DNA of 64,000 bases from sequence record NC_047979.1. One strand, given 5' to 3'. The translations under genes were made by a program, and so were the position numbers. Below are positions 12,976 to 61,418 of the stretch, piece after piece. Within the stretch, counting starts at the first letter, position 1. Each line of letters opens with the position of its first letter. The notes beneath the pieces were generated by a model that saw only the letters and a list, made by a program, of their open reading frames with translations, was not told the DNA's origin and ran no database searches. The DNA comes from Escherichia phage Gostya9.

Positions 12976-13253
12976 TTTTTAATCTCCGTGATTATCTGTG
13001 TACGCATTACTTTAGCAGGTAATTTATTATTCCCAACTATTGCTTCTATACTATTTAATTTTTCTTTAAGAATATCCGAGCGTCTTTGGGCTATTTCAAT
13101 ATCTTGTTCTTGCTCTATTAACCGGTGGTGTAGTCCATCATTAGTAATAAGCATACTTTCCATGTTTTTTCGTGCGTTTACAATCCCAATAACTCCGCCA
13201 ATCGCTACTAGCGTAGTAAGGACCAGTAACCCAATAAGGATTTCTATAATCAT
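12972..13253 (-). CDS. membrane-anchored coiled-coil protein
   Basis: 93-aa ORF; N-terminal TM segment. Confidence 0.4.
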   Translation of the reverse strand: MIIEILIGLLVLTTLVAIGGVIGIVNARKNMESMLITNDGLHHRLIEQEQDIEIAQRRSDILKEKLNSIEAIVGNNKLPAKVMRTQIITEIKK

Positions 13254-13786
13254 TTATTTAATTCCTCTAGAGTAGGTAAGGGTTTTGTAGGATCAAAAGT
13301 TTCTATAATAGCATTAGCTCCATGTAACTCTAACCGAAGCTCATTAGCTCTTTTAATCGCTAATCCTAAATCTAAGTAGTCAAAGAGTCCACCATACACA
13401 GGTTTTTTATTAATATCTTTATTTTGTACTTGCCATTTTTGGGCAGCTTTATGCCAAGAGATCCCTAAATACCCTGAATTACTGTAGCTAGTTCTATTCT
13501 TGTTATTTTCACTAGAAGTGACGTCTCTCAGGTTATCCCATCTATTATCCCATGTAACCCTATTTTTATGGTCAACTTCTTCGGGAATTTTACCCTCCAT
13601 GTACAAAAAGGCCAGTCGGTGAGCTTTATACCTTTCCCTATCGATACCTATGATAATATACCCATCTTTATCTGATGTTCCAGCTACAGAGCCTGCTTTA
13701 GCTCGGCCCCTGCTCACTTTTCTAATAAATTCGCCCGTTTCCGGGCGGTATTCAAATAGCTCTTTTAATCTTTCTTGTGTTAGCAT
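13250..13786 (-). CDS. HNH homing endonuclease (paralog 1 of 3)
   Basis: 178 aa; MLTQERLKEL..GYIIIGIDRERYKAHRLAF..VDHKNR..NRWDNLRDVT..ENN.NRT motif set; paralogous to 22939..23448 and 60885..61418. Confidence 0.75.
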   Translation of the reverse strand: MLTQERLKELFEYRPETGEFIRKVSRGRAKAGSVAGTSDKDGYIIIGIDRERYKAHRLAFLYMEGKIPEEVDHKNRVTWDNRWDNLRDVTSSENNKNRTSYSNSGYLGISWHKAAQKWQVQNKDINKKPVYGGLFDYLDLGLAIKRANELRLELHGANAIIETFDPTKPLPTLEELNK

Positions 13787-14076
13787 CTTTTCTTTAATTG
13801 CTTAACTTCACGCTCAAAGCTAGCTGCTCGGCGTTCTGCCACTGCCTGATGCTCTTTAGCAAAACGTGCTTCTTGTTTTGCGAGGTTGAATGCCATAGCG
13901 TTCTTGTTAAGAGAATCGTACATCTTTTTCATTGCTGGGATGGACATTTTCATCAGTTGCCCCTCAAATCCTTGCATGTCGAGGAGAATTGCTAATACGT
14001 TGGCCATCTCAGTCTTAGTAAGGTTAGAGGCGTCGAAGTCTTTAGTCATGTTTTCCATTAGAATTTCCTCTCTCAT
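13780..14076 (-). CDS. hypothetical protein
   Basis: 98-aa ORF directly downstream of promoter 14091-14119. Confidence 0.5.
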   Translation of the reverse strand: MREEILMENMTKDFDASNLTKTEMANVLAILLDMQGFEGQLMKMSIPAMKKMYDSLNKNAMAFNLAKQEARFAKEHQAVAERRAASFEREVKQLKKRC

Positions 14077-14090
14077 TAATTTATGAACTT

Positions 14091-14119
14091 ATTATACAGA
14101 ATTTTAAGGCTTAAAGCAA
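14091..14119 (-). promoter_or_regulatory. sigma70-type early promoter
   Basis: minus-strand TTGCTT-17-TATAAT (plus-strand attata-17-aagcaa) with conserved AATTTATGAA leader. Confidence 0.65.
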
Positions 14120-14136
14120 CTGAATTTTTTAATTAC

Positions 14137-14565
14137 TTACCAATCGTTAACGAAACCTGAGAACTCAGAAGTTAATACTTGTTCAAATTTCTCTGCAATT
14201 TCAGGATGATCTTTGCAGATCAGCTCAATACAGGCTTCTGGAGTCATTCCTTCATCTTCAGGATCACCATAATACTTGTCCCAAAGATCATCAGGGATGA
14301 TGTGCTCTGCCAAATCTTGGAAATAAACTGCCTGGTAACGTGGGGCTTCTTCAGCAAAGAGTTCTTCGATCTCTTCATCTGCCTCACCTTTGTAATCTGC
14401 CATTAATAAGGCATCAGTTGCGTAACACTCCCAGACCATCAAGCGTTCAGAAATAGGATTAGACTTATCCTGAACGTAAGACTGAAACAGGGTTCGGAAA
14501 GTTGCCTTAACTTGTTCAAACTTATCTGCTGCTGCGAAAACTAGAGCTTTATCAACTTTGTTCAT
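14137..14565 (-). CDS. hypothetical acidic protein
   Basis: 142-aa ORF. Confidence 0.5.
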   Translation of the reverse strand: MNKVDKALVFAAADKFEQVKATFRTLFQSYVQDKSNPISERLMVWECYATDALLMADYKGEADEEIEELFAEEAPRYQAVYFQDLAEHIIPDDLWDKYYGDPEDEGMTPEACIELICKDHPEIAEKFEQVLTSEFSGFVNDW

Positions 14566-14595
14566 TTTTATTCCTTCTCATCAATTTATAAAGTA

Positions 14596-14625
14596 ATTAT
14601 ACAGAAACTTAGGCATTTTAGCAAA
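14596..14625 (-). promoter_or_regulatory. sigma70-type early promoter
   Basis: TTTGCT-18-TATAAT on minus strand. Confidence 0.55.
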
Positions 14626-14732
14626 TAAAACTTTTAATTAAAATGCCTAGTCCTGTACCAACAGCAATACAAATGATTATAAGTATTGCTACTGCTTGTA
14701 TGATTCGTTTAATAATGGCCCCAGCTATACAC

Positions 14733-15254
14733 TTAGACATTTAACATCCAGCTAGTTTTATCATGAGAAGTATACTTACCACTCATGATGTCTTCCAGTC
14801 GTACCGGTGATTTTGCATACTCTACACAAACGTTAATATAGCGAGGGTCTCCCATTAACTCAAAGTGAGTATGCCCATGTAAGTTCTTCTTGCCCCTTAG
14901 CTCTCCCGGATGCACTGGAGCATGGGAAAGCCAGAAGTTTTTATATTTAACTAGTGATTGTATGTTATCTACAATTCCCACTAAGTCTTTGAAAGATAAC
15001 CCTTCTCGTTCTAAGTCGTGGTTCCCCAAAACTAATGTAGTTCTAACATTGCTAAAGAGTTTTTCGAACTTCTCCAAACCATTTCTAGATACAAATGCAT
15101 CTCCTAAAGTATAAAATACTGTACGCTTATCCTTCATGGATGTAATAGTATCCATGATAAATTCATCATGCTCTTCCATAGTAGAGAAGATTGGTCTGAA
15201 TTTAGTAATATTTGCATGTCCTAAATGGAGATCGCTCCAAAAGCAGACTTTCAT
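14733..15254 (-). CDS. calcineurin-like metallophosphoesterase
   Basis: 173 aa; DLHLGH, GDAF, LGNHD and GHTH motifs. Confidence 0.7.
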   Translation of the reverse strand: MKVCFWSDLHLGHANITKFRPIFSTMEEHDEFIMDTITSMKDKRTVFYTLGDAFVSRNGLEKFEKLFSNVRTTLVLGNHDLEREGLSFKDLVGIVDNIQSLVKYKNFWLSHAPVHPGELRGKKNLHGHTHFELMGDPRYINVCVEYAKSPVRLEDIMSGKYTSHDKTSWMLNV

Positions 15255-16129
15255 TAAAGAATCCTCTGTATGCCACAGCTATTATTTTTGTCAGTGGTAA
15301 ATGTTGTGATTTTGCCAGTTTCATCATTAACTTGCGCAACCGTCAACTGCCCGTTGAAGACACCGCCAGTATCTAGGTAAACACGATTCTGGTATAAAAT
15401 AGGGTAAGGTACTCCAGTATGCCCATGAAACACAAAGTCTACCTCATTAACTGGAGGTACTTCTACCATGTATTTTTCTTTAAATCCTGCATAACGCTGG
15501 AAATACGGGTGTTCCTCACTATTTTTGGACAAATGGAAGCCTATTTCTTGTATTACATCTCGATCCCATAAGTATGGTTCAACATGGTATTCAGGATGGT
15601 CATGTGGGTCTTCCTTAGCTGCTTCTACTTGTGCAATAAGGCTATCCCATACTGGGGTTTCTACTTCGTTACCGCATTCTTTGTACGTAAAAGGTACACC
15701 ACCATGAACAACACCATATTTCTTGCCACGATGCAGCACAGTCAGAAATACTGGAAGTTTTTCAGCCATGTCTTCGGCAATATTTTTAATGGTATCTGTA
15801 TCTAGTTCATTCATAGCCCACATACCACCGTTATACATCCAGTTAGTCCAATCTCCTCCAATCATAAACTGGTCGTGGTTTCCACGAACGCTACAGAAAC
15901 GTGGATTATACAAGAATTTGGCTAAAACTTGTAGGTTCTGCGTGCCTCGGTCAATTAAGTCCCCTACACATACAACGCAATCTTTCTTGCCGTTATACCC
16001 AGCTAATTGTAGTGCATCTTCTAGTAAATCGTTGCAACCATGAATATCACCAACAAAGAATAAGTTAACATCATCAGGTACTACTAGTGTTTTATGTACA
16101 TTAAATTCTTTTTTCATAATTATTCCCAA
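15254..16129 (-). CDS. Ser/Thr protein phosphatase (PPP family)
   Basis: 291 aa; GDIHGC, GDLIDRG and GNHD signature motifs. Confidence 0.8.
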   Translation of the reverse strand: MGIIMKKEFNVHKTLVVPDDVNLFFVGDIHGCNDLLEDALQLAGYNGKKDCVVCVGDLIDRGTQNLQVLAKFLYNPRFCSVRGNHDQFMIGGDWTNWMYNGGMWAMNELDTDTIKNIAEDMAEKLPVFLTVLHRGKKYGVVHGGVPFTYKECGNEVETPVWDSLIAQVEAAKEDPHDHPEYHVEPYLWDRDVIQEIGFHLSKNSEEHPYFQRYAGFKEKYMVEVPPVNEVDFVFHGHTGVPYPILYQNRVYLDTGGVFNGQLTVAQVNDETGKITTFTTDKNNSCGIQRIL

Positions 16130-16365
16130 ATAACATTTAAAATAGTTGTACCATAGTTATTAGATAGTTTGAGAGTATAACCCTCTTTATAAATGGCTTT
16201 TATGGCCTCATAACTAATTTCATCACGGTTAAACTGCACATAAGAACCACCAATCTCCACAGAAGAAACTATTCTCTTTTTAACATACTTATATGGTTTC
16301 TTTCTGTTCTTGAGAAGAGCAGCTCTATTAACCCTAGCTAAATGTTTTGCTTGCTCTGCTAACAT
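16120..16365 (-). CDS. hypothetical protein
   Basis: 81-aa ORF. Confidence 0.45.
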   Translation of the reverse strand: MLAEQAKHLARVNRAALLKNRKKPYKYVKKRIVSSVEIGGSYVQFNRDEISYEAIKAIYKEGYTLKLSNNYGTTILNVIWE

Positions 16366-16392
16366 TTAATCCTCCTATCAATCTATACAAAT

Positions 16393-16421
16393 ATTATACC
16401 AAAATTTTTAGCTGAAAGCAA
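16393..16421 (-). promoter_or_regulatory. sigma70-type early promoter
   Basis: TTGCTT-17-TATAAT on minus strand. Confidence 0.65.
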
Positions 16422-16424
16422 GTA

Positions 16425-16456
16425 AAATAAAAGCCTGATCCGCTAAGATCAGGCTT
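16425..16456 (-). terminator. rho-independent terminator
   Basis: AAGCCTGATC..GATCAGGCTT hairpin followed on minus strand by TTTTATTTT. Confidence 0.6.
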
Positions 16457-16462
16457 GCTTTA

Positions 16463-16753
16463 TTAATCTTCTGGATTATCATCCAGGAAATTTTTAATGG
16501 CTTCGTGCATGGTTTCTTTACGAAGCTGACGTCCAATCAAAATATGATTAGCTTCTATTCGACCATTAGGTAAGCGATCCGCCAGAACTACTACAGGTAC
16601 TTGGCGCACACCAAATTTCTGCATTAATTCTGCATTATCAGTCTCTTTATGGACTTCCAAATTATAGTCATTGACTACTTTATCAAATACTGGTTCGAAA
16701 AGTTTACATGGGTTACAGGTGGAACCTTTCAATAGATATACTAATTTACTCAT
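16463..16753 (-). CDS. thioredoxin/glutaredoxin-like redox protein
   Basis: 96 aa; CNPC (CxxC) motif near N-terminus in thioredoxin-fold context. Confidence 0.55.
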   Translation of the reverse strand: MSKLVYLLKGSTCNPCKLFEPVFDKVVNDYNLEVHKETDNAELMQKFGVRQVPVVVLADRLPNGRIEANHILIGRQLRKETMHEAIKNFLDDNPED

Positions 16754-17177
16754 AGTTATTAATGGCCTCTAAGAAGTTTTTCATAGTTTTTACTGTTGCG
16801 GTGCTCAGATCAAGATTTACACCCAAACATTCTGTTAATGCTGCCTGGTAAGGCGCTTTTAATCTGCCTTCTGGGACTTCTACCTTTTTATATTCTTTAT
16901 TTTTGACCTTTTTAATCATAGTCTCTAGTACAAGAAGTGGTAATTTAGCACCTTCAATATCAGTACCCAAAAGTTCAGTTAAAATTTTATTAAGATCAAG
17001 ACGAGTTAACTTTTTGCCCTTAGACATAGATGCACCTACCTTTGTACCAATAGATTTTTCCGCTTTCTTTTCGAGCTTTTTGTACTCAGGAGAGTCATGA
17101 TCACGGAGTGCAATGTTTAGCTCGTAATGTGGTATACGAAAATGTTCCGCCATTTGAGTGTAGAAACGATCAGACAT
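16746..17177 (-). CDS. hypothetical protein
   Basis: 143-aa ORF. Confidence 0.5.
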   Translation of the reverse strand: MSDRFYTQMAEHFRIPHYELNIALRDHDSPEYKKLEKKAEKSIGTKVGASMSKGKKLTRLDLNKILTELLGTDIEGAKLPLLVLETMIKKVKNKEYKKVEVPEGRLKAPYQAALTECLGVNLDLSTATVKTMKNFLEAINNYE

Positions 17178-17210
17178 AATATATACCTCTCTTAACTAAT
17201 TTATGTATAT

Positions 17211-17239
17211 ATTATATAATAACTAGGGCTAAAAGTCAA
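17211..17239 (-). promoter_or_regulatory. sigma70-type early promoter
   Basis: TTGACT-17-TATAAT on minus strand. Confidence 0.6.
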
Positions 17240-17252
17240 CTACTTTTTTATC

Positions 17253-17669
17253 TTAATCTACTGTATGTATACATCTTTTCCTAACTAGATACATAGTTAT
17301 TGGGTAAATTGAGTACATAAGTATCGGGGAGAAAAGAGTGAAATATGCTGTAACTCCCCCAGCTAACATCAAAGGTATTAATGCTAGAGTAAGGGCCATA
17401 AGAATCATACCGAATGAAACAGCCAAAGCTATGGATATAGGATTCTCTAGTTCCACCCATAACCAACAATATTTCGAATCTCTATGGCAATTGCATTTAC
17501 AAACGCCGAATGAACCCATAATTATATACTCTAGTCCGTGAATAACCTTTATTAATAAGCTATTTCGGGTAGTTAATGCAATGATAGTAAAGACTATCAT
17601 TAAAACGAATACTACTAGACTTATTTTCCAGATACCTAGCAGTATCATAATGAATAGTTCTGCAAACAT
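17253..17669 (-). CDS. multi-pass membrane protein
   Basis: 138 aa, several hydrophobic segments. Confidence 0.45.
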   Translation of the reverse strand: MFAELFIMILLGIWKISLVVFVLMIVFTIIALTTRNSLLIKVIHGLEYIIMGSFGVCKCNCHRDSKYCWLWVELENPISIALAVSFGMILMALTLALIPLMLAGGVTAYFTLFSPILMYSIYPITMYLVRKRCIHTVD

Positions 17670-17746
17670 GTCTTTCTCCTATCTTTAAGAAAAATTATTA
17701 AAGCCCCCTTGACTAAAAGCGGGAATATTCCCGCCTAAGTTATTAC

Positions 17747-18160
17747 TTAAACTAGTTCGACATGACCGCCATCATAGGTACCACGTTTTATTTCATCGTG
17801 ATAGTCTCCCGAAGCATTCCAATCAGCACCAAAACGAAGTTTAATGCCTAGTTCTTTACCAGCTTGTTCAAAAGCCTTTTTAATTGCCCAAAATGCTTCT
17901 AAATCATTCCAATCAATTTTGCCATTAATATATGGAGCAAAATCGATAGCATCCCCAGTAATATGTTTGCTTTTACTAGGATCTTTTAGAAATGAAGTAC
18001 CATTAGCAATGTTCTGGGCACTTTGTGCTACTGTACGAATACCTTGCACGATTGTGAAATCGTACGGAGATAATTCTAAAGCCCTACGAGCTACTTTTTG
18101 TAGTTCAGGCTTAACGGTTGCTAATTGTTTTTCGCTATTTTTACCAAATTTAAAACTCAT
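17747..18160 (-). CDS. endolysin, L-alanyl-D-glutamate peptidase type
   Basis: 137 aa; H..D..H zinc-peptidase pattern (KHITGDAIDF ... GGHVEL); same length as T5 endolysin as recalled. Confidence 0.7.
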   Translation of the reverse strand: MSFKFGKNSEKQLATVKPELQKVARRALELSPYDFTIVQGIRTVAQSAQNIANGTSFLKDPSKSKHITGDAIDFAPYINGKIDWNDLEAFWAIKKAFEQAGKELGIKLRFGADWNASGDYHDEIKRGTYDGGHVELV

Positions 18161-18813
18161 ATTGACCTACCTAAAGATCTCTGTTGTGGGGAACAGAGCT
18201 TTGCTAAATATTCCTTGAACTGTTCAGAATCGGCTGTATCTACCGGATTATCTTTCCAAGCAATACCAATGTACCCAGCATAGATATTTTTTAGATTGAA
18301 GTATGGGCAAGTGTATATGTACTTAAAAGTAACGTTTTTAAACGCAGGTATATTTAACCCCATATATTTATTTACTCTTACCCTTAAATCCGATACGTAG
18401 TTAAAGCCCTCTAAATGACGTCTGTATAATTCAGACGTTTTATTTACCGCTTTATCGGCCAAGTCAGCCCTATCTAATTGCGCATTACTTTCCCATGCAA
18501 TAATATTGGAATAATCATTGATAGCATCTGGTTTATACTTGACTACAAAAACAGCATCTGCACCCGTCTGAGAGAAGAGAACCATGCTCTTTTCCCTCGC
18601 CACATTAGGGAAGTTATCTATCCTCTGGGTTTGTAAATCTTGTAAAACTGCAGACGTGGAAAAAGTCTTTAAGAATGACATCACCTCACTAGTATGACTA
18701 ACAAATAAGAAAATAATGACAGCAACTAAGATAGTTAGCAGACGTTTAAGAAGCGATGCTGGGTCTTTCGCTTCTTGGAGCAGTACTGTTAATAATTGTA
18801 AGAACTTTTCCAA
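18157..18813 (-). CDS. putative holin
   Basis: immediately upstream of endolysin; TM segment LTILVAVIIFLFV; TTG start 7 nt after AGAGGAGG RBS gives 218 aa. Confidence 0.55.
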   Translation of the reverse strand: MEKFLQLLTVLLQEAKDPASLLKRLLTILVAVIIFLFVSHTSEVMSFLKTFSTSAVLQDLQTQRIDNFPNVAREKSMVLFSQTGADAVFVVKYKPDAINDYSNIIAWESNAQLDRADLADKAVNKTSELYRRHLEGFNYVSDLRVRVNKYMGLNIPAFKNVTFKYIYTCPYFNLKNIYAGYIGIAWKDNPVDTADSEQFKEYLAKLCSPQQRSLGRSI

Positions 18814-18838
18814 TTTGTAACCTCCTCTAACCAATACC

Positions 18839-18958: not shown

Positions 18959-18970
18959 GCTTAAAATTAC

Positions 18971-22632: not shown

Positions 22633-22958
22633 TTCAGATCCTTTTCGTTAATTAGAATATCAGTAAACAGTGGAGTAAATCCTAGAATCATAGGAGGTCC
22701 AAAGGTTTGCATAGCTACCCACAGTTGCATAGTGATCATCCCATCTTTAATCTCTGGATCTTTATACTCTTCGATACGTTTTTTGGCAAAGGCAACTACA
22801 TCTGGAGTGCTACCATTCTTTATAACATGATCATGCCAAAATTGTGTATTCTCACTACGCAGGAATGTTAAGACGTCCTTAGTTGCTGGAATCTGCACTG
22901 TGCTATTGATGTTTAACTTTTTCACGTTCTTCTCTCTGTTATTCTTTAGGAAACCCAT
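22629..22958 (-). CDS. hypothetical protein
   Basis: 109-aa ORF. Confidence 0.45.
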   Translation of the reverse strand: MGFLKNNREKNVKKLNINSTVQIPATKDVLTFLRSENTQFWHDHVIKNGSTPDVVAFAKKRIEEYKDPEIKDGMITMQLWVAMQTFGPPMILGFTPLFTDILINEKDLK

Positions 22959-23448
22959 TAAACTCTTCGATGACTGCTAGAGTTCCGTGCAACTCTAATC
23001 GTAATCCATTAGCTTTGTATACTGCAGATTCTAAGTCTTCATAATCGAATAGACCACCGTAAACTCTAATACCTTCGTTATTATTAGTATAAACTCTCCA
23101 TTTCTGGAGATGAGTATCCCAAGATACTCCTAAGTATCCCGAATTGCTAGTAGCAGTCCTATTTCTATTATTTTCCTGCCTAGAACTATCTCTGAGATTA
23201 CTCCACCTATTATCATCCCTAATTCTATTGATATGATCAACAAATTCAGGAATATACCCTTCCATAAACAAGAAGGCTAATCTATGCGCTAGTTCCCTGT
23301 GTCCATCTCCAACTCTAATCTGAATATATCCATAGTTATTAGGCTTATTATTTATAGGTTTTATTCTACCACTTTTTAGACGTCTAGAAAATAATCCTGT
23401 TTCTGGATCATATATCAGCAGTTCTTTTAACCTTTCTTGTGTAATCAT
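22939..23448 (-). CDS. HNH homing endonuclease (paralog 2 of 3)
   Basis: 169 aa; MITQERLKEL..HRLAF..VDH.NR..NRW.NLRD..ENN.NRT, same architecture as 13250..13786. Confidence 0.75.
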   Translation of the reverse strand: MITQERLKELLIYDPETGLFSRRLKSGRIKPINNKPNNYGYIQIRVGDGHRELAHRLAFLFMEGYIPEFVDHINRIRDDNRWSNLRDSSRQENNRNRTATSNSGYLGVSWDTHLQKWRVYTNNNEGIRVYGGLFDYEDLESAVYKANGLRLELHGTLAVIEEFNGFPKE

Positions 23449-31294: not shown

Positions 31295-31371
31295 TGGTAC
31301 TCCGTAAGGGATTCGAACCCCTAATCAAGAACTTAGAACGATCTTGCCTTATCCAATTTGGCCAACGGAGC
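31295..31371 (-). tRNA. tRNA, anticodon unresolved (possibly Arg UCU)
   Basis: CCA + acceptor GCTCCGT/ACGGAGT + T-arm GGGGTTCGAATCCC + D-arm GCC..GGC; anticodon stem has one mismatch. Confidence 0.5.
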
Positions 31372-31899
31372 ATGAATCTGGGCTTTAATTAGTTCTTCTA
31401 CAAGTGAAGGGTTTAGTTTAAACCATTCTCCTGTGGTGTTGTAGTCTTTAAATGTTCTATGCACTAGGTTCTCTACTGAATAAGCATCTTCACAGAAGAA
31501 CCATCTGAGTATACTGAAGGATTTTTCCGGTGAGAAACAATTTGCTTCTTCTAACCTGCGAGCAGGTTCTATGGACTTACCTACTTTTATAAACTCAGGG
31601 CATTTGGAATCTTGCATTATGTAGACAAAACCTTCCCTAGACCTTAACTTGCTAACCACCGTACAATCACGATATTTTAATAGGTTGATAGCTGCTAGTC
31701 TGAAATATTGTCGCAGTAAACTTTTTTGTTTACTTGGTCTTAGTTTTGAGAATGCTAGTTTATCTTCTATTTTTAGTAAAGCCACTTGATTTACTAAACT
31801 GTAAGTAATTTTGAACCATTCATTACATTTAGGGATCAGCCCTAAATTAATGGCTTTGGTTATTTGTCCTATGTCATAGGAGTTATCTCTCATATACAT
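31333..31899 (-). CDS. T5orf172-domain / GIY-YIG-like protein
   Basis: 188 aa; GFVYIM..FIKVGKS..P..R..E pattern typical of the T5orf172 family as recalled; 3' end overlaps the tRNA, so the exact stop needs checking. Confidence 0.5.
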   Translation of the reverse strand: MYMRDNSYDIGQITKAINLGLIPKCNEWFKITYSLVNQVALLKIEDKLAFSKLRPSKQKSLLRQYFRLAAINLLKYRDCTVVSKLRSREGFVYIMQDSKCPEFIKVGKSIEPARRLEEANCFSPEKSFSILRWFFCEDAYSVENLVHRTFKDYNTTGEWFKLNPSLVEELIKAQIHAPLAKLDKARSF

Positions 31900-37882: not shown

Positions 37883-38392
37883 TTATTCCCCTTCGTAGGT
37901 ATCTTCAGGCCAATGTGATGGTTCACTATCTGCTGGTTTATACATTCTAGGTAGTGCTAATAGTGAGAGAAAAGCTGGCTCACTAAAGTAGTGAGTATAT
38001 TCTTTAAACTCTGAGAACCACTCAGTTACCTCTTGAATATCCTCTTCACAAGGTGAGAGAGTTTCTATGGAACAGGTTGCACCCCTCTTAGGTTTGGTTT
38101 TATAATAGTCATCTAGTACTCTTTGAACCTTCTGTGCTGTTTCCTCAGCAGTTAAAGATTCATCACACTCTATACTATCTATCTCCTCTGCTAGATAGTC
38201 CGGCCATTCCTCTCCCTGACCTACTCCATCATAACGAATGACTGGCTGGCAGTCCTCATCACTATTTAGTGCATGTAGTTCCATATAATGGAACGTTTGG
38301 GCTATTACATCTAGCAGCAACTTTAGTTGCTCTTTTGAGGCTGTCCCTTCTTTGTACTTAATATAGGCATTAGCTACTTTTGGATTAATCAT
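37883..38392 (-). CDS. hypothetical acidic protein
   Basis: 169-aa ORF. Confidence 0.45.
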   Translation of the reverse strand: MINPKVANAYIKYKEGTASKEQLKLLLDVIAQTFHYMELHALNSDEDCQPVIRYDGVGQGEEWPDYLAEEIDSIECDESLTAEETAQKVQRVLDDYYKTKPKRGATCSIETLSPCEEDIQEVTEWFSEFKEYTHYFSEPAFLSLLALPRMYKPADSEPSHWPEDTYEGE

Positions 38393-38426
38393 ATTCGTAT
38401 TTATCCTTTGTTTATTAATTGAGTAT

Positions 38427-38455
38427 ATTATATTTAAATTTCACTAAATAAGCAA
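38427..38455 (-). promoter_or_regulatory. sigma70-type early promoter
   Basis: TTGCTT-17-TATAAT on minus strand. Confidence 0.65.
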
Positions 38456-38493
38456 ATGAAATTTAAGTATAATAGCCCCGAAGGCTATTTAAA

Positions 38494-39267
38494 TTATACA
38501 AACTCATACGCCGGGAACTTAGGTGAACGAACTCTATTACCTATAGTCGCTGTGGAACACCCCAATGCTCTAGCTGCTGCACTCATACTAACGTATTCCA
38601 CACCATCCACACGTACTGCCTTAAAGTGAGTAGGAATGGGTGTCTTTCCCTCTCTAATACTTTCTTGGTACTGCTTAGAAGCCTGAGACATCTTGCTCAG
38701 AGCCTCTTCAGTGTGCTTCTTCCCATAAAAGGAGTTATTCTCACCTGTTCGATCCCTACAACTATTACAGTACTCCCCATTAGTGTTATTAAGGGCTAGT
38801 AGGGAACCACAATCAATACATGTTTTTGAGCGAGTAGATACTCCTCCCTTCCAGTTATAGTTTAGCTCGCCTGGTCTACTCCACCGGGCTTTTCTTTCTT
38901 CTTTAGATAAGGACGCTATATGCTTTCTAACACTCTCACTAATTCTCTTAATAATCTCCTCTCTTCGAGGATTATTTGTGAGATTATCCCCGCCACCGTA
39001 GCTACCTATGTTGAACTCTGCTCCCAGCTCCTTAGCCCACTCTTCTTCTAGTAAGAACTGCTGATCTACTTCTTCAGTAGTATCTAAGATGTCAAATACA
39101 AAGTCTTGCTTTCCGGTTTTATCATAAGCTCTCTGTAGAAAAGCGTTATGGTGGTTCCCCTTACTTAGTGAGTAAAAATGTTTACGCTTTCTAGCCTCAA
39201 TATCCTTAGTCGATCCAACGTACTGTCTTCCCGTAGATAGCTGAGTTATACTATAGATGTAAATCAT
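38494..39267 (-). CDS. GIY-YIG homing endonuclease with NUMOD-like repeats and C-terminal HTH
   Basis: 257 aa; N-terminal IYIYSITQLSTGRQYVGST..R..H (GIY-YIG), repeated N..GG..NSFYGKKHTEE modules, C-terminal HTH; start overlaps thyA stop. Confidence 0.7.
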   Translation of the reverse strand: MIYIYSITQLSTGRQYVGSTKDIEARKRKHFYSLSKGNHHNAFLQRAYDKTGKQDFVFDILDTTEEVDQQFLLEEEWAKELGAEFNIGSYGGGDNLTNNPRREEIIKRISESVRKHIASLSKEERKARWSRPGELNYNWKGGVSTRSKTCIDCGSLLALNNTNGEYCNSCRDRTGENNSFYGKKHTEEALSKMSQASKQYQESIREGKTPIPTHFKAVRVDGVEYVSMSAAARALGCSTATIGNRVRSPKFPAYEFV

Positions 39268-40097
39268 GCTGCCATTTTACCAGTTAATTTAGGGTGATGT
39301 TTATATTCTTCCAGGATAAAGTCTTTGGGTGTTAGGGCCAGAAGATCTTCTAAGGAAGAGAAGTTTGGCAGTACTAGTCTAGGTAGCTCCAGGGGTTCTC
39401 TAGTTACTTGCTCCTTTACTTGGTCTAGGTGATTTAAGTAAATATGAGTGTCCACAAGATGTCCTGTTACTGACCCAGGTTTCTTTCCTGTGAGTGCAGC
39501 TAAAATATGACAGAGTAAGGCATAGCTAGCTATATTAAATGGTAATCCTAGAAATACATCACAACTAACCTGGTACCATGTTAAGTGTAGGTGTCCATCT
39601 CTTTGGTTTACAGAGAACATTACGTGGCAGGGAGAAAGCACAACGTCGTCAAGTTTTGCAGGATTCCATGCTGAGACTACCATTTTTCTATTATGAAAAA
39701 TATCGGATTTGATATCCTCGATTAGTTTCATAATCTGGTCTGTACCGAAGAAGTCTCTCCAGTTTTTCCCATAAATATATCCCAGATAACCTTCAGTGTA
39801 GCCTTTTTCGACCCCTTGTTTTTCATAATTAGGATGCCAGATAGTACGCTTCTCTCCTCTAGTCCCATGAGTATACTCTTCTAGATCATACAAGTTAGTA
39901 GATCCTGAGAGGAACCACAACAACTCCCCTACCACGGATTTCCACGCTAGTGCTTTTGTTGTTACTGCTGGAAACCCTTTAGTAAGGTCAAAAGAGACAA
40001 TATTATTTAGGGAAGAGATAGTACCTACACCTGTCCGGTCAGACACGTGGGTTCCCTCAGATAAAACTTTATTAATTAAATCAATATACTGTTTCAT
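39264..40097 (-). CDS. thyA: thymidylate synthase
   Basis: 277 aa; catalytic region SPCHVMFSV..LTWYQVSCD..LGLPFNIASYALL conserved. Confidence 0.9.
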   Translation of the reverse strand: MKQYIDLINKVLSEGTHVSDRTGVGTISSLNNIVSFDLTKGFPAVTTKALAWKSVVGELLWFLSGSTNLYDLEEYTHGTRGEKRTIWHPNYEKQGVEKGYTEGYLGYIYGKNWRDFFGTDQIMKLIEDIKSDIFHNRKMVVSAWNPAKLDDVVLSPCHVMFSVNQRDGHLHLTWYQVSCDVFLGLPFNIASYALLCHILAALTGKKPGSVTGHLVDTHIYLNHLDQVKEQVTREPLELPRLVLPNFSSLEDLLALTPKDFILEEYKHHPKLTGKMAA

Positions 40098-40630
40098 TAA
40101 TAAGTAACCAATTCCTGTACAAATCGCAGGCTGTTATCACTGTTTGCGCCAACTGCATAGACTAATCTAGTGGATTCATAGTTATAATCCAGTATCATAC
40201 TATCTAGGTATGTATCTGCCTCTAGCTTCTGTTCGCTAAAGATTGTAGATACAAAAGCACTTTCTATATGCCCATGTTGGTACATTTCTAGAAGAAGATT
40301 AGCTCCGCCTAGAACTACTGTTTGCTGATCTTTTAGAAAAGTAGGTAATGTATCACCTATCATTGATATGGGAGTGTAAATATCATGTGTAATATCGTCT
40401 GGCAGTGGACGATCAGCACGAATAAATAGGTCAGAAGTTCCAATCATACGTTCCCTAACGGCGTATGGAAGAGCTAAATAAGTACCTGCCCCAATAATAA
40501 TATTATCAGGATTTAGTACATCTAATTGTGAATAAAAAGCATCTAGTTCTTCTTTAAAAGAACCCCAGGGAAGCTTACCTCGGAGGCCGAACTCCCCATT
40601 CGGCCCAACTGCATACATTGCACTAATCAT
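40097..40630 (-). CDS. dihydrofolate reductase
   Basis: 177 aa; N-terminal MISAMYAVGPNGEFG..LPW DHFR signature; start overlaps nrdB stop. Confidence 0.8.
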   Translation of the reverse strand: MISAMYAVGPNGEFGLRGKLPWGSFKEELDAFYSQLDVLNPDNIIIGAGTYLALPYAVRERMIGTSDLFIRADRPLPDDITHDIYTPISMIGDTLPTFLKDQQTVVLGGANLLLEMYQHGHIESAFVSTIFSEQKLEADTYLDSMILDYNYESTRLVYAVGANSDNSLRFVQELVTY

Positions 40631-55870: not shown

Positions 55871-55884
55871 TAGGGAGATTATAC

Positions 55885-56172
55885 ATGAATAAACAAGAAA
55901 TTATCTCCGCATGTGAAGCCCATAATGAGTTCTACCTTCATTATGAGAAACTACGCCAAAAGGGTACTACATACCTTCAGGGTACTATGGATTTTTCTGA
56001 TAAGTACCTAAGTAAACGTTTTGCTCAGGAGCGTATCCGTCAACCAAAAGATGACGAAATTCTAGTGTTTAGTCGCACTAATGACAGCTTCCGTTTCATT
56101 CCTGTTGCGAAAGTTCGTCGCATTACGAGCCTTCAGTCAGAGTTAGATCGTGCTTCTCCAGTAGGCCGATAA
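55885..56172 (+). CDS. hypothetical protein
   Basis: 95-aa ORF with RBS. Confidence 0.45.
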   Translation: MNKQEIISACEAHNEFYLHYEKLRQKGTTYLQGTMDFSDKYLSKRFAQERIRQPKDDEILVFSRTNDSFRFIPVAKVRRITSLQSELDRASPVGR

Positions 56173-56223
56173 GATAGCAATTAAGCCCCTATATGGGGCT
56201 TTTTGTGTATTTGAGAAACGTAA

Positions 56224-56532
56224 ATGAGCGATCAGGTAAACCAAAACTATGAAGGACACGTTGATGATCAGTCAATCCTTCTATGGGAAAAAGAAGGGGA
56301 ACAAATAAGATTGACAGTATCTGAATTTCGTGGGAATCTATACATGGGAATTAGGTATTGGCTCCAGGATATTACTGGAGAATGGTTTCCAACGAAATCC
56401 GGCTTCTCTTTTCCGTACACTCTAGAAACTACTTCGCAGCTATTCTATGCTTTTACGCAAATCCTTAGTGAATCTGAGGTTCTTGCCGAAGTACAGAAAC
56501 GAGCTGAAGAACTCAAAGCCAAGAATGCCTAG
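56224..56532 (+). CDS. hypothetical protein
   Basis: 102-aa ORF. Confidence 0.45.
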   Translation: MSDQVNQNYEGHVDDQSILLWEKEGEQIRLTVSEFRGNLYMGIRYWLQDITGEWFPTKSGFSFPYTLETTSQLFYAFTQILSESEVLAEVQKRAEELKAKNA

Positions 56533-56548
56533 TTCTTGGCTTTTTCTT
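56519..56548 (+). terminator. rho-independent terminator
   Basis: GCCAAGAA..TTCTTGGC hairpin followed by TTTTTC. Confidence 0.6.
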
Positions 56549-56559
56549 TATAAATGTAT

Positions 56560-56588
56560 TTGCTTTCAACTCAGTTTTGTTATATAAT
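56560..56588 (+). promoter_or_regulatory. sigma70 promoter for ligase A
   Basis: TTGCTT-17-TATAAT. Confidence 0.65.
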
Positions 56589-56619
56589 ATTTATATAAAT
56601 TAATGAGAGATATAAATAA

Positions 56620-57591
56620 ATGACTAATGTAAAAGAATTTATTAAACGCTGTCAAGAAGCATATTATCAGGGCATGTCTTTAATCTCTGATGAGGAGTAT
56701 GATCGCCTGGTAAAACGCTTCCCGTTAGAGGAAGAGATCGGGCCTAAGGGTGATATTCCACACCTATATCGTATGTATTCTTTACAGAAAGTTTATTATA
56801 ATCGTGGAGATAAACCCCCATTTGACCCGTTAGGTCAAGTAGAAACTGATAAGTTAGATGGTTGTGCGATTTCCCTGCTATATATTAACGGTGAATTTGT
56901 TCAAGCACTAACTCGTGGTAATGGTATTCTGGGAAATGATGTCACAAGCAACGTAAGATTGCTGAACATCCCTAAAAAGATTTCCCAAAAAGTACCTACT
57001 CAAATCACTGGTGAAGTTCTAATTACAAAAGAAGTAGAAAATAAACGTAACTTTGCCTCTGGTGCTATTAACCTCAAAGATAGTGATGATTTCATGCAAC
57101 GTATCGGGGAAGGTGGTTTAATCTTCGTTGCATACGGTATCCAGTGTTCTGCTGAATCTGTAGGTATTACAGAAGCGTATTTAAAAGATATGCTTTGGCT
57201 AGAGAATGAGAACTTCTTAACAGTTGTTAATGTGCGTTCCTTCTTTAAATGGATTCCGACGGACGGTAAAGTTGTTCGTATTAATGACAATAACAAATTC
57301 TTCCGTGAAGGTTGGACTAATAAATTTCCTCGTGGGGCATTCGCTATTAAAGAGGATGAAGAAGGCGAGATTACAACTCTTACTAAAGTTGAATGGCAGG
57401 TAGGGGCTTCTGGTAAAGTAACTCCAGTCGGTTATTTTGAACCAGTAATTATTGATGATGCTACAATTGTTAAAGCGACTCTTAATAATGTTGATTATAT
57501 TAACTCTCTCGATCTAGAGATCGGTTGCCAGATTCGAGTGATTCGTGCTGGTGGTGTAATCCCGTGCATAGTAGAGCGAGTTTATGATTAA
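56620..57591 (+). CDS. NAD-dependent DNA ligase, N-terminal (adenylation/OB) part
   Basis: 323 aa; adenylation motif KLDG (ETDKLDGCAIS) with flanking LigA-type sequence; ends before the Zn-finger/HhH/BRCT region. Confidence 0.75.
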   Translation: MTNVKEFIKRCQEAYYQGMSLISDEEYDRLVKRFPLEEEIGPKGDIPHLYRMYSLQKVYYNRGDKPPFDPLGQVETDKLDGCAISLLYINGEFVQALTRGNGILGNDVTSNVRLLNIPKKISQKVPTQITGEVLITKEVENKRNFASGAINLKDSDDFMQRIGEGGLIFVAYGIQCSAESVGITEAYLKDMLWLENENFLTVVNVRSFFKWIPTDGKVVRINDNNKFFREGWTNKFPRGAFAIKEDEEGEITTLTKVEWQVGASGKVTPVGYFEPVIIDDATIVKATLNNVDYINSLDLEIGCQIRVIRAGGVIPCIVERVYD

Positions 57592-57639
57592 TACATAACC
57601 CTTTGCTACCCCTCTACCATATCGGAATTATAAAGTGGT

Positions 57640-57668
57640 TATTGACATTTTCGCCGCTTAGGTATATA
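57640..57668 (+). promoter_or_regulatory. sigma70 promoter in the ligA-ligB spacer
   Basis: TTGACA-17-TATACT. Confidence 0.5.
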
Positions 57669-57734
57669 CTATTATCATTCAGTTGAGGGATAGAAAGTTA
57701 TGGCGAGGGTAAGCAAAGTTAGTTAAAATTGTAG

Positions 57735-57763
57735 TTGCTAAATGCTTAAATACTTGCTATAAT
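57735..57763 (+). promoter_or_regulatory. sigma70 promoter for ligase B
   Basis: TTGCTA-17-TATAAT. Confidence 0.65.
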
Positions 57764-57790
57764 ATTTATATAAATTGATAAGGAAGAAAT

Positions 57791-58573
57791 TTGATGAAAA
57801 TCGAAATTCCAACACAATGTCCCTCTTGTGGTTCTAAGCTAGATCTTGTCAACGGACAATTATTCTGTCGTAATAAGTCCAACTGTCCAGCGCAATCAAG
57901 TAAGTTAATTGAGAACTTCTGTACAAAAATGAAGTTAAAGGGCTTTGGCCCGAAAACTATTGAGAAGCTGGAGCTGACGAAGATTTCAGAACTATTTTAC
58001 CTAACCGAAGAAGATTTGGTTAGAGCCGTGGGTAGCAAGGTTGCCGCTAAGTTAATTAGCGAATTAAATACTAAAGTTCGCGGAGACATTGACTTTGGTT
58101 CAGTTCTCGGTTCTTTAGGAATCCCTCTAATTGGAGAGGTTGCAGCAAAGAAATTATCCCAAAATTGCACTAGCTTCCACGATGTGAAGGCTGACGGCAG
58201 GGCTGGAGAAAACTATAAAGCCTGGCTAAATTCCCCACAAGGCAAGGATGTTATCGAATTACCGTGGAAATTCACAACCGGTATTAAAGGTGCTAAAGCT
58301 GAGGTCAGCATTACTGATGGTCTAGTAGCCCAACCAAATGGAATCACGGTGTGTATTACCGGATCTTTGCAAGATTTTGCAAATAGAACGGATGCAACAA
58401 ACTATCTAGAAGGTCTAGGGTATACTGTTAAAAAATCAGTTACCAAAGACGTTAAATACCTCATCTGTGAGGATGAATCTAAGCGTTCTTCCTCATCTTA
58501 TAAGAAAGCCGAAACGAATGGGATAGAAATCCTGTCGATTAAAGAACTATTGGAGAAAAATAATAATGTCTAA
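57791..58573 (+). CDS. NAD-dependent DNA ligase, C-terminal (Zn-finger/HhH/BRCT) part
   Basis: 260 aa; N-terminal CPSCGS..C..C zinc finger then helix-hairpin-helix-like and BRCT-like regions. Confidence 0.7.
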   Translation: MMKIEIPTQCPSCGSKLDLVNGQLFCRNKSNCPAQSSKLIENFCTKMKLKGFGPKTIEKLELTKISELFYLTEEDLVRAVGSKVAAKLISELNTKVRGDIDFGSVLGSLGIPLIGEVAAKKLSQNCTSFHDVKADGRAGENYKAWLNSPQGKDVIELPWKFTTGIKGAKAEVSITDGLVAQPNGITVCITGSLQDFANRTDATNYLEGLGYTVKKSVTKDVKYLICEDESKRSSSSYKKAETNGIEILSIKELLEKNNNV

Positions 58574-59333
58574 ACTGAACTGGAACGTAGAAGGTGTAAC
58601 CGAGTCTCTGAAAGCAAAAGCCACTGCTCTGGGTGTTGCTGTAATCTCTCAAGAACAAGTAGCTGCTATCGCTGCTGAACTGGCTGCTGAAACTGGCAAA
58701 GACGTTACCGCTCGCTCTGTTGGCTCTAAGCTGCGTAAAGAAGGTTTCGAAGTACAGAAAGCTAACGAAGTACAGAAATCCCCGTGGACTCCTGAGCAGG
58801 AAGCTGAACTGGTTGATTTCCTGAACTCTCATGCTGGTCAGTATACTTATGCTGAAATCGCTGCTGCTGTAGCTGGTGGTCAATTTGGTGCTAAGCAGGT
58901 ACAGGGTAAGATCCTGAGTCTGGAAATGACCGCTTCTGTTAAACCAACTGAAAAAGCTGCTGCTGTTCGTTCCTTCACTCCTGATGAAGAAACTGATTTT
59001 GTTAATCAGGTTGTTGCTGGTGCTACTATTGAAGCTATTGCTGCTCACTTCGGTCGTAATATCAAGCAGATCCGTGGTAAAGCTCTGAGTCTGCTTCGTG
59101 AAGGTCGTATCGCTGCTATGCCGGTACAGGAAACTTCAAGTGCTAAAACTCGTGAAGATCTGCTAGAAGGTCTGGATCTGGCTAACATGACTGTTGCTGA
59201 GATCGCTGAGAAAACTGGTAAGTCTGAGCGCGGTGTTAAATCTATGCTGTCTCGTCGTGGTCTGGTTGCTAAGGACTATGATGGTGCCGCTAAGCGTGCT
59301 AAACTGGATGCAAAAGCTGCGGCTGCTGAATAA
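58566..59333 (+). CDS. protein with three tandem HTH-like repeats, GC-rich codon usage
   Basis: 255 aa; repeated T..E.A...G...R.V..KL...G modules; strong CTG/GCT codon bias unlike neighbours. Confidence 0.5.
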   Translation: MSKLNWNVEGVTESLKAKATALGVAVISQEQVAAIAAELAAETGKDVTARSVGSKLRKEGFEVQKANEVQKSPWTPEQEAELVDFLNSHAGQYTYAEIAAAVAGGQFGAKQVQGKILSLEMTASVKPTEKAAAVRSFTPDEETDFVNQVVAGATIEAIAAHFGRNIKQIRGKALSLLREGRIAAMPVQETSSAKTREDLLEGLDLANMTVAEIAEKTGKSERGVKSMLSRRGLVAKDYDGAAKRAKLDAKAAAAE

Positions 59334-59351
59334 TCTGGTAAATTAAACCTA

Positions 59352-59386
59352 AGGGGTGGGGGCTATGCCTCTACCCCTTTTTGCAT
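59352..59386 (+). terminator. terminator-like hairpin
   Basis: AGGGGTG..CACCCCT-like stem followed by TTTTT; lies inside the ORF-track N-terminus of the next gene. Confidence 0.45.
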
Positions 59387-59415
59387 TTAGAAGGCACGAA
59401 AGCGTGCAAAGGAGA

Positions 59416-60888
59416 ATGACCTTGTTTAACGTGCAAGCTGTAGTGTTGAAGATGCTTCTAGCTTCCGAACAGAAGCAAATAGCATTGGAAACATTCTCAA
59501 AACTGCATAAAGATCATTTTAATGACGCTTTCTCCTCAATTTACCAAGCCGTCCAGAATTATTATAAAAAATATAACACAATGCCGTCCATTGACGCACT
59601 GATGCTTGAGGCTAATAGGAACGCCCGCCTTTCTCAAGCTCTAGTCGTTTTAGCTAACACTCAAATTCCAGAAGTTAGCATGGAACAGGCACTTGAAGTC
59701 CTAGAGGCCGAGTATACACAGGATTTATTCCTGAAGCTTCTAGAAACAGACGTGCTTCAAGATTTAACAATGCTGGATCAGGGAGAAATTCTTAACCGAG
59801 TTGCCTCCCTTCACTTAAAATTAGAAGAGAAAGTAACGAATACTGGAAAAGTATTCAACGCAGATAACATGCGTATTTTCCAGAGAGAAGAAGATACCAA
59901 ACTGAACTTAATCGCTCTTGGTATTTGTAATGAGTTCGACGCTCAAATTGGTTTAGCTCGCACAGAAACGTTACTGCTTGGTGGTTGGCGTGGTACTGGT
60001 AAATCCATTATCTGTTCAAACATACAGGTTCAGCAATATTTGAATGGAGATATTGCTCCATACTTCTCAATTGAGATGAAAGAACATGAAGTATTTAGAC
60101 GTAATCTAGCTATGTTAGCTGGTGTATCAGCACTAGCAATGCGTAATAATACTCTAGAAGGTGCAGCTCTGTTGAGATTAGCCAGAACTAGAGCTAGGAT
60201 GTTTAACGGTGGTGAAGAGCTTTTCGATAACTTCGTTAAACAGTACACAATGGCTAAGATGAGTGATTTCTACGATATGGAAAGTAAGCTAATAGAAGGA
60301 TATGAGCTACATACTCCTATGATTATTGTTTATGATCCTGAGCTGTCTATTACAACAGTTGACGTAGAATTAAATAAATTAGTTGCTAGATATGGGGATA
60401 AAGTTACAGTAGCTTTACTAGACTATATTAACCAAACCCGACTTCCAGACTCTAAAACCATTGATATGTATGACTGGAAAGAACAGATGGTTGTTAGCTC
60501 GTCTTTCAAATCTATCTGCCAGAAACATAACGTGGCTGGTGTAGCTCCTTACCAGATCGATCAAGATGGTAGAACACGTATGTCGAAGGGGATTCTTGAT
60601 TCCGCAGACATGGCTGCTAATCTTAATGCTGCAAAAGCTGATAATGGTCAAGGTGCTATTATGTTTGACTTCGTTAAGACTCGGTCTTCTGATAGCGTGA
60701 AGTTTATGCCTAAAATGAACTGGGAAACCCTGCGGATGGATAACACTACCAACCTAGCAATGGAAGATATATCTCAAATGGAAGCTGAGTTCGTTATCCC
60801 TATTGAGAAGGATAAGCCGACTCAATCTAAACGTGCTAAGAAAGACAAAGCTGAAAATTCAACAGGTGAACAGGCCAGCGATATATGA
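59416..60888 (+). CDS. DnaB-like replicative helicase
   Basis: ATG after AAGGAG RBS (490 aa); RecA-fold Walker A GWRGTGKS. Confidence 0.65.
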   Translation: MTLFNVQAVVLKMLLASEQKQIALETFSKLHKDHFNDAFSSIYQAVQNYYKKYNTMPSIDALMLEANRNARLSQALVVLANTQIPEVSMEQALEVLEAEYTQDLFLKLLETDVLQDLTMLDQGEILNRVASLHLKLEEKVTNTGKVFNADNMRIFQREEDTKLNLIALGICNEFDAQIGLARTETLLLGGWRGTGKSIICSNIQVQQYLNGDIAPYFSIEMKEHEVFRRNLAMLAGVSALAMRNNTLEGAALLRLARTRARMFNGGEELFDNFVKQYTMAKMSDFYDMESKLIEGYELHTPMIIVYDPELSITTVDVELNKLVARYGDKVTVALLDYINQTRLPDSKTIDMYDWKEQMVVSSSFKSICQKHNVAGVAPYQIDQDGRTRMSKGILDSADMAANLNAAKADNGQGAIMFDFVKTRSSDSVKFMPKMNWETLRMDNTTNLAMEDISQMEAEFVIPIEKDKPTQSKRAKKDKAENSTGEQASDI

Positions 60889-61418
60889 TAACACAGGAAA
60901 GGCTAAAAGAGTTATTTGATTACTCCCCAGTTTCTGGGGAGTTTACTAGAAAAGTATCTAGAGGTAATCAGAAAGCTGGTAGTATAATAACCAGAAAAGA
61001 CTCTAACGGTTATATAATTATTGGTATAGATGGCAAGGATTACAAAGCCCATCGGATGGCTTTTCTATTTATGGAAAATACATTGCCGGAAAAAGTAGAC
61101 CATGTAAACAGAATACCTTTTGATAATAGGTGGTGTAATCTAAGAGACGCCACAGCTCAGGAAAATAGTAGAAATAAAACCGCATGTAGTAAGTCTGGAT
61201 ATTTGGGAGTTGCTTGGGATATCGAAAAACAAAGATGGAGAGTTCAAGTAAGAGACTCTAATAGCACTCTTAAAAATGGTGGCAGATTTAAGTATGAAGA
61301 GCTAGAGCTAGCTGTAAATTCAGCAAATATATTAAGGACTAAGTTACATGGAGAACGTGCTGTTATAGAAATTTTTGATACATCTAATTATCCTTCACTG
61401 GAGGAGTTAAATTCATGA
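60885..61418 (+). CDS. HNH homing endonuclease (paralog 3 of 3)
   Basis: 177 aa; MITQERLKELFDY..GYIIIGIDGKDYKAHRMAF..VDHVNR..NRWCNLRDAT..ENSRNKT; overlaps both neighbours. Confidence 0.75.
   Translation: MITQERLKELFDYSPVSGEFTRKVSRGNQKAGSIITRKDSNGYIIIGIDGKDYKAHRMAFLFMENTLPEKVDHVNRIPFDNRWCNLRDATAQENSRNKTACSKSGYLGVAWDIEKQRWRVQVRDSNSTLKNGGRFKYEELELAVNSANILRTKLHGERAVIEIFDTSNYPSLEELNS

Follow-up and report, generated by a model that had tools for sequence, protein, structure and literature searches.

Five putative homing-endonuclease elements, probably independently mobile, in the early region of the T5-like phage Gostya9

Why should a phage carry three related HNH endonuclease genes, a GIY-YIG endonuclease gene and an intein in a single genomic region, and are these genes selfish or do they serve the phage? 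This question is raised by a 64,000-nt stretch of Escherichia phage Gostya9 (NC_047979.1), hereafter the window, on which all positions are counted. The HNH genes (here HNH1, HNH2 and HNH3) are paralogs, the GIY-YIG gene abuts the thymidylate synthase gene thyA, and the intein lies in the DNA polymerase gene (pol). A first-pass annotation made from the sequence had described them as a heavy load of selfish nucleases, and comparison with related phages agrees with this description, as the elements are present or absent at exact sites in syntenic relatives and their nuclease motifs are intact. We consider it highly probable that Gostya9 is a T5-like phage with five independently mobile homing-endonuclease elements, which would spread along the routes proposed below. 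As a class, the finding is routine, being a new combination of known elements, four of which are annotated in relatives.

Megablast searches with positions 12000-25000 and 50000-62500 returned 470-549 phage records, almost all of them Escherichia and Salmonella T5-like phages. The best relatives were DT57C and DT571/2 at ~97% nucleotide identity, and T5, H8, VEc33 and IrisVonRoten were 92-96% identical to the window. A gene-by-gene tblastn comparison with T5 (AY543070) was colinear from A1 to the start of pol, and the window thus represents the early region of a Tequintavirus (T5-like).

Each of the five elements has one exactly conserved site, which is filled in some T5-like genomes and vacant in others that are otherwise syntenic. 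Occurrence was counted among ~470-550 T5-like records, and slot occupancy among IMG/VR loci anchored on the flanking genes. Full-length HNH1 was found in 21 of ~470 records by megablast, the HNH2 allele in 8 and HNH3 in 43 of the whole set, the GIY-YIG protein in 8 (95-99% identity) and the pol intein in 6 of ~500. The HNH1, HNH2 and HNH3 slots were occupied in 10/28, 3/22 and 9/42 related loci, respectively, and the intein in 0/42. The first-pass annotation had proposed comparing presence and absence of the endonucleases in related phages, and this comparison reveals polymorphism at all five sites: DT571/2 has none of the elements, though it is ~97% identical overall and its primase is 100% identical. 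Among the records listed, none was seen with all five elements together, and the best matches of the five lie in different phages, which indicates independent assortment. Copies of the elements in different phages are 95-99.6% identical, above the identity of their flanks, which points to recent transfer.

Relative to T5, the window lacks hegA, C, D, F, G, H and I by tblastn, keeps hegJ, has another allele in the hegE slot and has a homing endonuclease gene (HEG) at one slot that is HEG-free in T5. According to published comparisons, T5-like genomes differ mainly through their homing endonucleases, and the number of free-standing HNH genes varies among these phages (PMC10644984; PMC3326045).

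The three HNH open reading frames (ORFs) are located where the first-pass annotation had placed them, at 13250..13786 (-) for HNH1, 22939..23448 (-) for HNH2 and 60885..61418 (+) for HNH3, and encode 178, 169 and 177 aa. They match Pfam HNH_3 with 55.5, 51.4 and 32.6 bits (gathering cutoff 24.8; E 4e-15, 9e-14 and 6e-8), and all three match PHROG 99, “HNH endonuclease” (E 1e-55 to 1e-64). Aligned in full length, they are 54-58% identical to one another (BLASTP E 1e-57 to 1e-74), within the 50-60 percent estimated earlier by eye. As befits a beta-beta-alpha-metal catalytic motif, His73, Asn85 and Asn94 are invariant in 11 HNH paralogs, namely the three in the window and eight from the T5 family. 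A profile of the family matches the nickase I-HmuI of phage SPO1 (PDB 1U3E; E 4e-9) in the nuclease core only (query positions 37-110), and I-HmuI has the catalytic His-Me finger of the same Pfam family. This match makes it plausible that the HNH enzymes are nickases in the biochemical sense.

The overlapping starts and stops noted in the first-pass annotation are also there. HNH3 shares ATGA overlaps with its neighbors at both ends, HNH2 has an ATGA at its start; in HNH1 the ATGA is found at the end, and the overlap at the start is 7 nt long. The heg genes of T5 are members of the HNH_3 family too, and share the promoter-less layout with overlapping codons; this set runs from hegA to hegJ, with F-TflI/II/IV characterized and P-TflV-X putative. 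The three HNH_3 genes are best explained as free-standing, I-HmuI-like and probably nicking homing endonucleases.

HNH3 is the ortholog of T5 hegJ (P-TflX), with 98% aa identity and in the same slot between the replicative helicase and primase genes. It forms a precise 530-nt insertion with a duplicated ATGA, and the same 530-nt insertion is seen in every filled slot of the primase-anchored loci. The empty site has the form helicase-ATGA-primase (...GCGATAT-ATGA-GTAGAATAAC...), in which the stop codon of the helicase gene and the start codon of primase share bases.

The first 90 nt of the primase gene (61415..61504, +) bear a synonymous signature that separates genomes with and without this HEG. 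They are nearly invariant in 18/18 HEG-less genomes, whereas 10/10 HEG carriers, representing at least four haplotypes, have synonymous substitutions within them, and nucleotide positions 51, 66 and 69 fully separate the two groups. The encoded peptide is identical across the groups except for the conservative changes D30E and D32E in one carrier (L023). In a 30-nt profile of the whole gene, between-group divergence is 0.18-0.19 at nt 31-90 versus 0-0.14 elsewhere (mostly <0.09). Among carriers, the helicase gene is less diverse over its last 600 nt, as is expected of hitch-hiking flanks. Since the synonymous changes are found only in carriers and the non-carriers are nearly invariant, primase nt ~30-90 are likely both target and immunity site; the hegJ-type enzyme would recognize this stretch in HEG-less genomes, and carriers would be immune. 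This signature did not turn up in the literature searched.

HNH1 is inserted between a DUF7179 gene (13780-14076) and a homolog of T5.030 (12972-13253). T5 has no HNH1, and its slot, which is HEG-free, holds the 54-aa ORF T5.031 instead. The related loci in which this slot has no HNH gene have T5.031 or are empty.

HNH2 occupies the T5.052/T5.050 slot, which is that of hegE (F-TflV) in T5, but as a divergent allele with 67% aa identity to hegE. It is 99.0-99.6% identical at the nucleotide level to copies in H8, IrisVonRoten, vB_Sen_I1 and vB_Sen_SG_WM_RUS_R2 (99.4-99.6% for the first three), and the same phages are only ~92-94% identical to the window over 13 kb around the gene. Nearby, the homologs of T5.047 (21059-21739, -) and T5.049 (22348-22632, -) are 53-56% identical to T5, and their neighbors are mostly >80% identical (T5.045 88%, T5.048 81%, T5.050 83%). 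The T5.047 homolog borders the hegF slot, which is empty in the window, and the T5.049 homolog lies one gene from the hegE slot; their divergence may be linked to endonuclease traffic.

The GIY-YIG gene (38494..39267, -) abuts thyA, as the first-pass annotation had it, and its ATG overlaps the thyA stop. The protein matches Pfam GIY-YIG with 35.1 bits (cutoff 22.6) and NUMOD3 with 33 bits (cutoff 20.4), and stays just short of the cutoff, 27 bits in both cases, for I-TevI_DNA-bd (26.9) and I-TevI_ZnF (20.7). Its sole PDB sequence matches are to I-TevI, namely 1mk0/1ln0 (aa 4-86) and 1i3j (aa 126-251; phmmer E 5e-10), the latter taking in the CxxC...CxxC region. Compared with I-TevI residues 5-87, the GIY/YIG motifs (YVGS) and the equivalents of R27, H31, H40 and E75 are conserved. 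Beyond a few T5-like orthologs, the best homologs in 50,697 phage records are the I-TevI proteins encoded in td introns (35-36% identity, with 96% of the length aligned), so that the homology to I-TevI of the T4 td intron takes in the catalytic domain, the Zn-finger/NUMOD3 linker and the DNA-binding domain. An intron-encoded origin of the gene was ruled out, as thyA is one uninterrupted 277-aa ORF and Rfam detects no group I intron in the window. The gene is thus a free-standing, seg-like homolog of I-TevI; in the annotation of SelmaRatti in the BASEL collection, the gene beside thy is given as “putative homing endonuclease”.

The adjoining thyA (39264..40097, -; Pfam Thymidylat_synt E 1e-82) is a divergent allele whose product is 54% identical to that of T5 thy. 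Three alleles of thy occur among T5-like phages: the common T5 type, the type seen in the window (W-type) and a third type at ~30% identity. Among the related loci, W-type thyA was confined to those with the GIY-YIG HEG (SP01, SelmaRatti, Kenya-K42) or, in SP3, with what is left of it, and T5-type thy was never found with this HEG. In SP3 (L067, about 5364-5530), W-type thyA is 100% aa identical and ~600 nt of the GIY-YIG gene are deleted, equivalent to 38640-39235 in the window, a decayed copy consistent with the life cycle of homing endonucleases.

The identity profile further shows that thyA and the HEG form a mosaic segment. Its left recombination junction lies in the 3' end of frd, at 40150..40210 (-). 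Upstream of it the window is 95-100% T5-like and 67-93% SP01/SP3-like, and downstream, through thyA and the HEG to ~38480, it is 97-100% SP01/SP3-like and ~55% T5-like. This switch indicates that the cassette moved between backgrounds. A junction inside thyA, hinted at by blastn, was ruled out by the same profile, in which the whole gene is replaced. The right edge is marked by a conserved intergenic sequence at 38424..38500 (-), located directly downstream of thy in HEG-less phages and just past the thy stop in IrisVonRoten; it is the only part of 37883-40097 common to ~140 T5-like records. This shared 75-nt stretch was considered as a remnant of a resident thy and rejected, as it is intergenic sequence past the thy stop. 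W-type and T5-type thyA DNA are too dissimilar for a crossover between target and HEG, and the whole gene would therefore travel with the nuclease.

The two alleles differ at a motif of interest. At 39564..39572 (-), W-type thyA has the Gln-Val-Ser codons CAGGTTAGT, where the T5 type has CAACGCTCT (Gln-Arg-Ser). At the homologous codons T5-type thy has CAACGCTCTGTGGATTGTTTCCTCGGTTTACCTTTCAATATTGC, starting with the I-TevI motif CAACG; it reads CAACGCTC..., and the HEG-linked allele reads CAGGTTAG, with CAGGT in place of CAACG. The Gln-Arg codons of T5-type thy presumably correspond to the T4 td homing site. The cleavage motif of I-TevI is CA^AC^G, in which C1 and G5 are critical (PMC5009752). 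The presumed recipient (T5-type) allele thus carries the native I-TevI motif, and the GIY-YIG enzyme may cleave T5-type thy at or near it. Both I-TevI and the window gene are tied to a thymidylate synthase gene. I-TevI is intron-encoded and spreads with its intron, whereas the window gene stands on its own, as the T4 seg genes do, immediately 3' of a thyA that has no interruption, and appears to spread with a whole replacement thyA. We did not find the I-TevI homology, the CAACG correspondence or the cassette mosaic in the searched literature.

Codons 176-178 of W-type ThyA specify Gln-Val-Ser, versus Gln-Arg-Ser in canonical thymidylate synthases, including the T4 enzyme (1TIS), which has Arg at the aligned residue. 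We take the replaced Arg to be Arg166 in E. coli numbering. That residue binds the phosphate of dUMP and has been called essential and intolerant to substitution. The closest relatives of W-type ThyA (66-83% identical), including that of Pectobacterium phage DU_PP_V, have Gln-Val-Ser or Gln-Pro-Ser, and the clade also has HNRK (RR-to-RK) and LSPCH for LPPCH (PPCH-to-SPCH). In the I-TevI CNNNG motif, the critical G comes from precisely the Arg codon that has been lost. If W-type ThyA is still active, pressure from the HEG might have remodeled the active site of a core enzyme, with the HEG now spreading the escape allele as an immunity cassette; this idea is tentative and on balance we think it unlikely.

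The first-pass annotation was right that the polymerase hosts an intein, which begins at 63307, beyond the range given there for the whole set of elements (13250-61418). The pol gene starts at 62368 (TTG), and its N-extein (62368..63306, +; residues 1-313) carries the 3'-5' exonuclease domain (Pfam DNA_pol_A_exo1 E 1e-32) and matches T5 pol residues 1-313, with 96.6% identity over the tblastn stretch. The intein separates the residues that correspond to A313 and A314 of T5 pol (WPYA^AKDTDAT). Residues 1-231 of its 359 lie in the window (63307..64000, +), beginning with the Cys codon at 63307 and including block A CLTHDSQV, block B TPDH (...FTPDHRVL) and the LAGLIDADG motifs LFGDGAL and WYQDDGNL (Pfam LAGLIDADG_2, 39.4 bits vs 25; E 8e-10). 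Intein-less pol is found in T5 and in all 42 IMG/VR loci.

The same 359-aa intein occurs at the same site, with 96-97% nucleotide identity, in SelmaRatti (Bas34, BASEL) and in the Salmonella phages smaug and Kenya-K36/K42/K44; the SelmaRatti record MZ501103 already annotates a pol intein. These full-length orthologs (359 aa, 96-97% identical) end in VGVVHN followed by Cys +1. The second LAGLIDADG motif is IWYQDDGNL in the window versus IWYQDAGTL in SelmaRatti (L006), and this change of Asp to Ala suggests that the SelmaRatti intein endonuclease may be inactive. SelmaRatti also carries an annotated nrdA intein (L003, 6498-7216); the window nrdA, at 811 aa the same length as T5 nrdA, has none.

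How would these elements move? Each HNH gene is inserted between two conserved early genes, has no promoter of its own and is coupled to its neighbors in translation. When genomes with and without it meet in one infected cell, the HNH enzyme would cut the HEG-less allele close to the insertion site, and repair from the HEG-bearing genome would copy the gene and its flanks in, by intronless homing. The hegJ-type enzyme would have its target at primase nt ~30-90, from which carriers would be shielded by their synonymous substitutions. The GIY-YIG enzyme would cleave T5-type thy at or near CAACG and spread as an obligatory cassette with a cleavage-resistant, divergent thyA. The intein, finally, would home via its LAGLIDADG domain into intein-less pol alleles, within the 3'-5' exonuclease domain, and remove itself by protein splicing.

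Intronless homing, including the nicking activity of MobA and MobE, has been described for T4 (PMC2988022), and the T4 seg and mob genes (SegF, SegG, MobE) show intergenic insertion, a target in the neighboring gene, co-conversion of flanks and sporadic distribution, likewise seen or proposed here. T4 belongs to a different phage family from that of the window. In addition, the predicted hegJ target lies only ~30-90 bp from the insertion, whereas hundreds or thousands of bp are described for free-standing endonucleases (PMC2988022).

Several points weigh against the view of five mobile homing elements. Enzymatic activity, cleavage sites and super-Mendelian inheritance are predicted from sequence comparison. 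Label permutation never reached the observed primase divergence (0/5000), a figure that overstates independence as the genomes are phylogenetically related, and the primase signature could stem from co-conversion of donor flanks alone, without selection for immunity. At ~35% identity, the GIY-YIG enzyme need not share the CAACG target of I-TevI, and the C-terminal splicing junction of the intein lies beyond the end of the window. The HNH proteins end in a putative DNA-binding domain that resembles AP2 only weakly. A Pfam AP2 hit occurs only in HNH2, at 19 bits versus a cutoff of 33.3, and the family profile gives E 0.16 against the AP2 domain of WRI1. An AlphaFold2 model of HNH3 from a 3-sequence alignment has a three-strand sheet and a helix at 108-158, at low confidence (predicted local distance difference test, pLDDT, 63), and a Foldseek search of this pLDDT-63 model against the PDB gave nothing significant (AtERF1 1gcc, E 1.9). 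I-HmuI differs from the T5-like HNH proteins in being intron-encoded, and the latter have this weakly AP2-like C-terminal domain.

The nuclease genes could also have been domesticated and benefit the phage by excluding competitors, by degrading host DNA or by regulation via the AP2-like domain. Expression of T5 HegG damages host DNA (bioRxiv 10.64898/2026.04.02.716235), marker exclusion by seg/mob genes favors the carrier genome in co-infection (PMC2988022), and the HEG ORFs in the window are intact and translationally coupled to essential genes. However, their distribution is sporadic even between ~97% identical phages, and the GIY-YIG copy of SP3 is decayed. A selfish cycle of gain, decay and loss fits these two observations better than a conserved function, and we regard domestication as quite unlikely.

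We also find it rather improbable that some of the elements are inactive relics, kept by linkage and no longer mobile. The HEG life cycle predicts decay after fixation, which fits the ~600-nt deletion in the SP3 gene and the Ala that replaces the second-motif Asp in the SelmaRatti intein. Against this, all five ORFs in the window are full length as far as visible, with catalytic residues present, and the high identity of the copies in different phages, exceeding that of their flanks, indicates recent transfer.

The first-pass annotation had further suggested that the HNH enzymes may be the nicking enzymes responsible for the single-strand interruptions of T5-type DNA. Three of the major interruption sites annotated in T5, with the motif CCCTGCG^C, are kept in the window at ~7638, 20152 and 30262, in conserved stretches at ~7619-7660, 20133-20174 and 30243-30284, and the phage therefore probably carries the same nicks as T5. 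A 2026 preprint calls the roles of the nine T5 HNH genes unclear (bioRxiv 10.64898/2026.04.02.716235), T5 does have hegJ, and our literature search for the T5 nickase found no paper naming its gene. However, HNH1 is absent from T5, the classic nicked phage; the HNH2 allele is only 67% identical to hegE, leaving HNH3 as the one shared with T5; and most T5-like genomes, the closest relative among them, have nothing in the HNH3 slot. The one statement found on the genetics of the nicks, in PMC3517423 with Rhoades 1984 as its source, has sciA and sciB, on which the nicks depend, mapping to the late region, while HNH1-3 are among the early genes. The nick motifs lie kilobases from any nuclease gene or predicted target, unrelated to the HEG sites, and the predicted primase target stretch contains no GCGC motif, the consensus of the T5 nicks being Pu^GCGC. 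A homing nuclease, moreover, acts on genomes without it and not on its own. A link between the HNH genes and the T5 nicks is not supported and is, in our view, very improbable.

The reading of five mobile homing elements has several consequences. Apart from five homing loci, the window phage and DT571/2 would be near-isogenic, which makes the pair ideal for crosses, and the signatures give testable candidate target sites for two uncharacterized enzymes, primase nt 31-90 and the CAACG Gln-Arg codons of thy. The I-TevI lineage would here exploit thymidylate synthase via a free-standing gene-replacement cassette, which bears on the origin of intron-endonuclease partnerships. The analysis also removes a tempting and unsupported link between the HNH genes and the unexplained nicks of T5.

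Beside the thyA cassette, an acidic 169-aa orphan ORF (37883..38392, -) lies directly upstream of rnh and is common only to SelmaRatti. It has no Pfam or PHROG match and is not recognizable as a nuclease. In six related loci (L055, L058 from H8, L062, L069, L070 and L075), an HNH gene whose product is 59-63% identical to HNH1 abuts rnh, so that the rnh-adjacent slot holds an HNH1-like endonuclease in those loci and the 169-aa ORF in the window.

The tRNA region contains an ORF overlooked in the first-pass annotation (31333..31899, -), which has T5orf172 and MUG113 domains of the GIY-YIG clan (Pfam MUG113 E 4e-17, T5orf172 E 3e-14; PHROG 5032). It is 30% identical to T5.069 and may be a sixth nuclease-like element. 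The nrdD gene (45710-47536, +; 608 aa) is 57% identical to T5 nrdD, which is annotated as a shorter coding sequence, and its neighbors are >92% identical; it looks like another whole-gene allelic replacement, with no adjoining endonuclease gene. ARAGORN predicts only 12 tRNA genes at 25339-32481 (-) and Rfam one more, at 26141-26213, whereas the corresponding region of T5 has about double that number. One of those in the window, at 32408-32481, is an unusual tRNA-Ser with the anticodon ACT.

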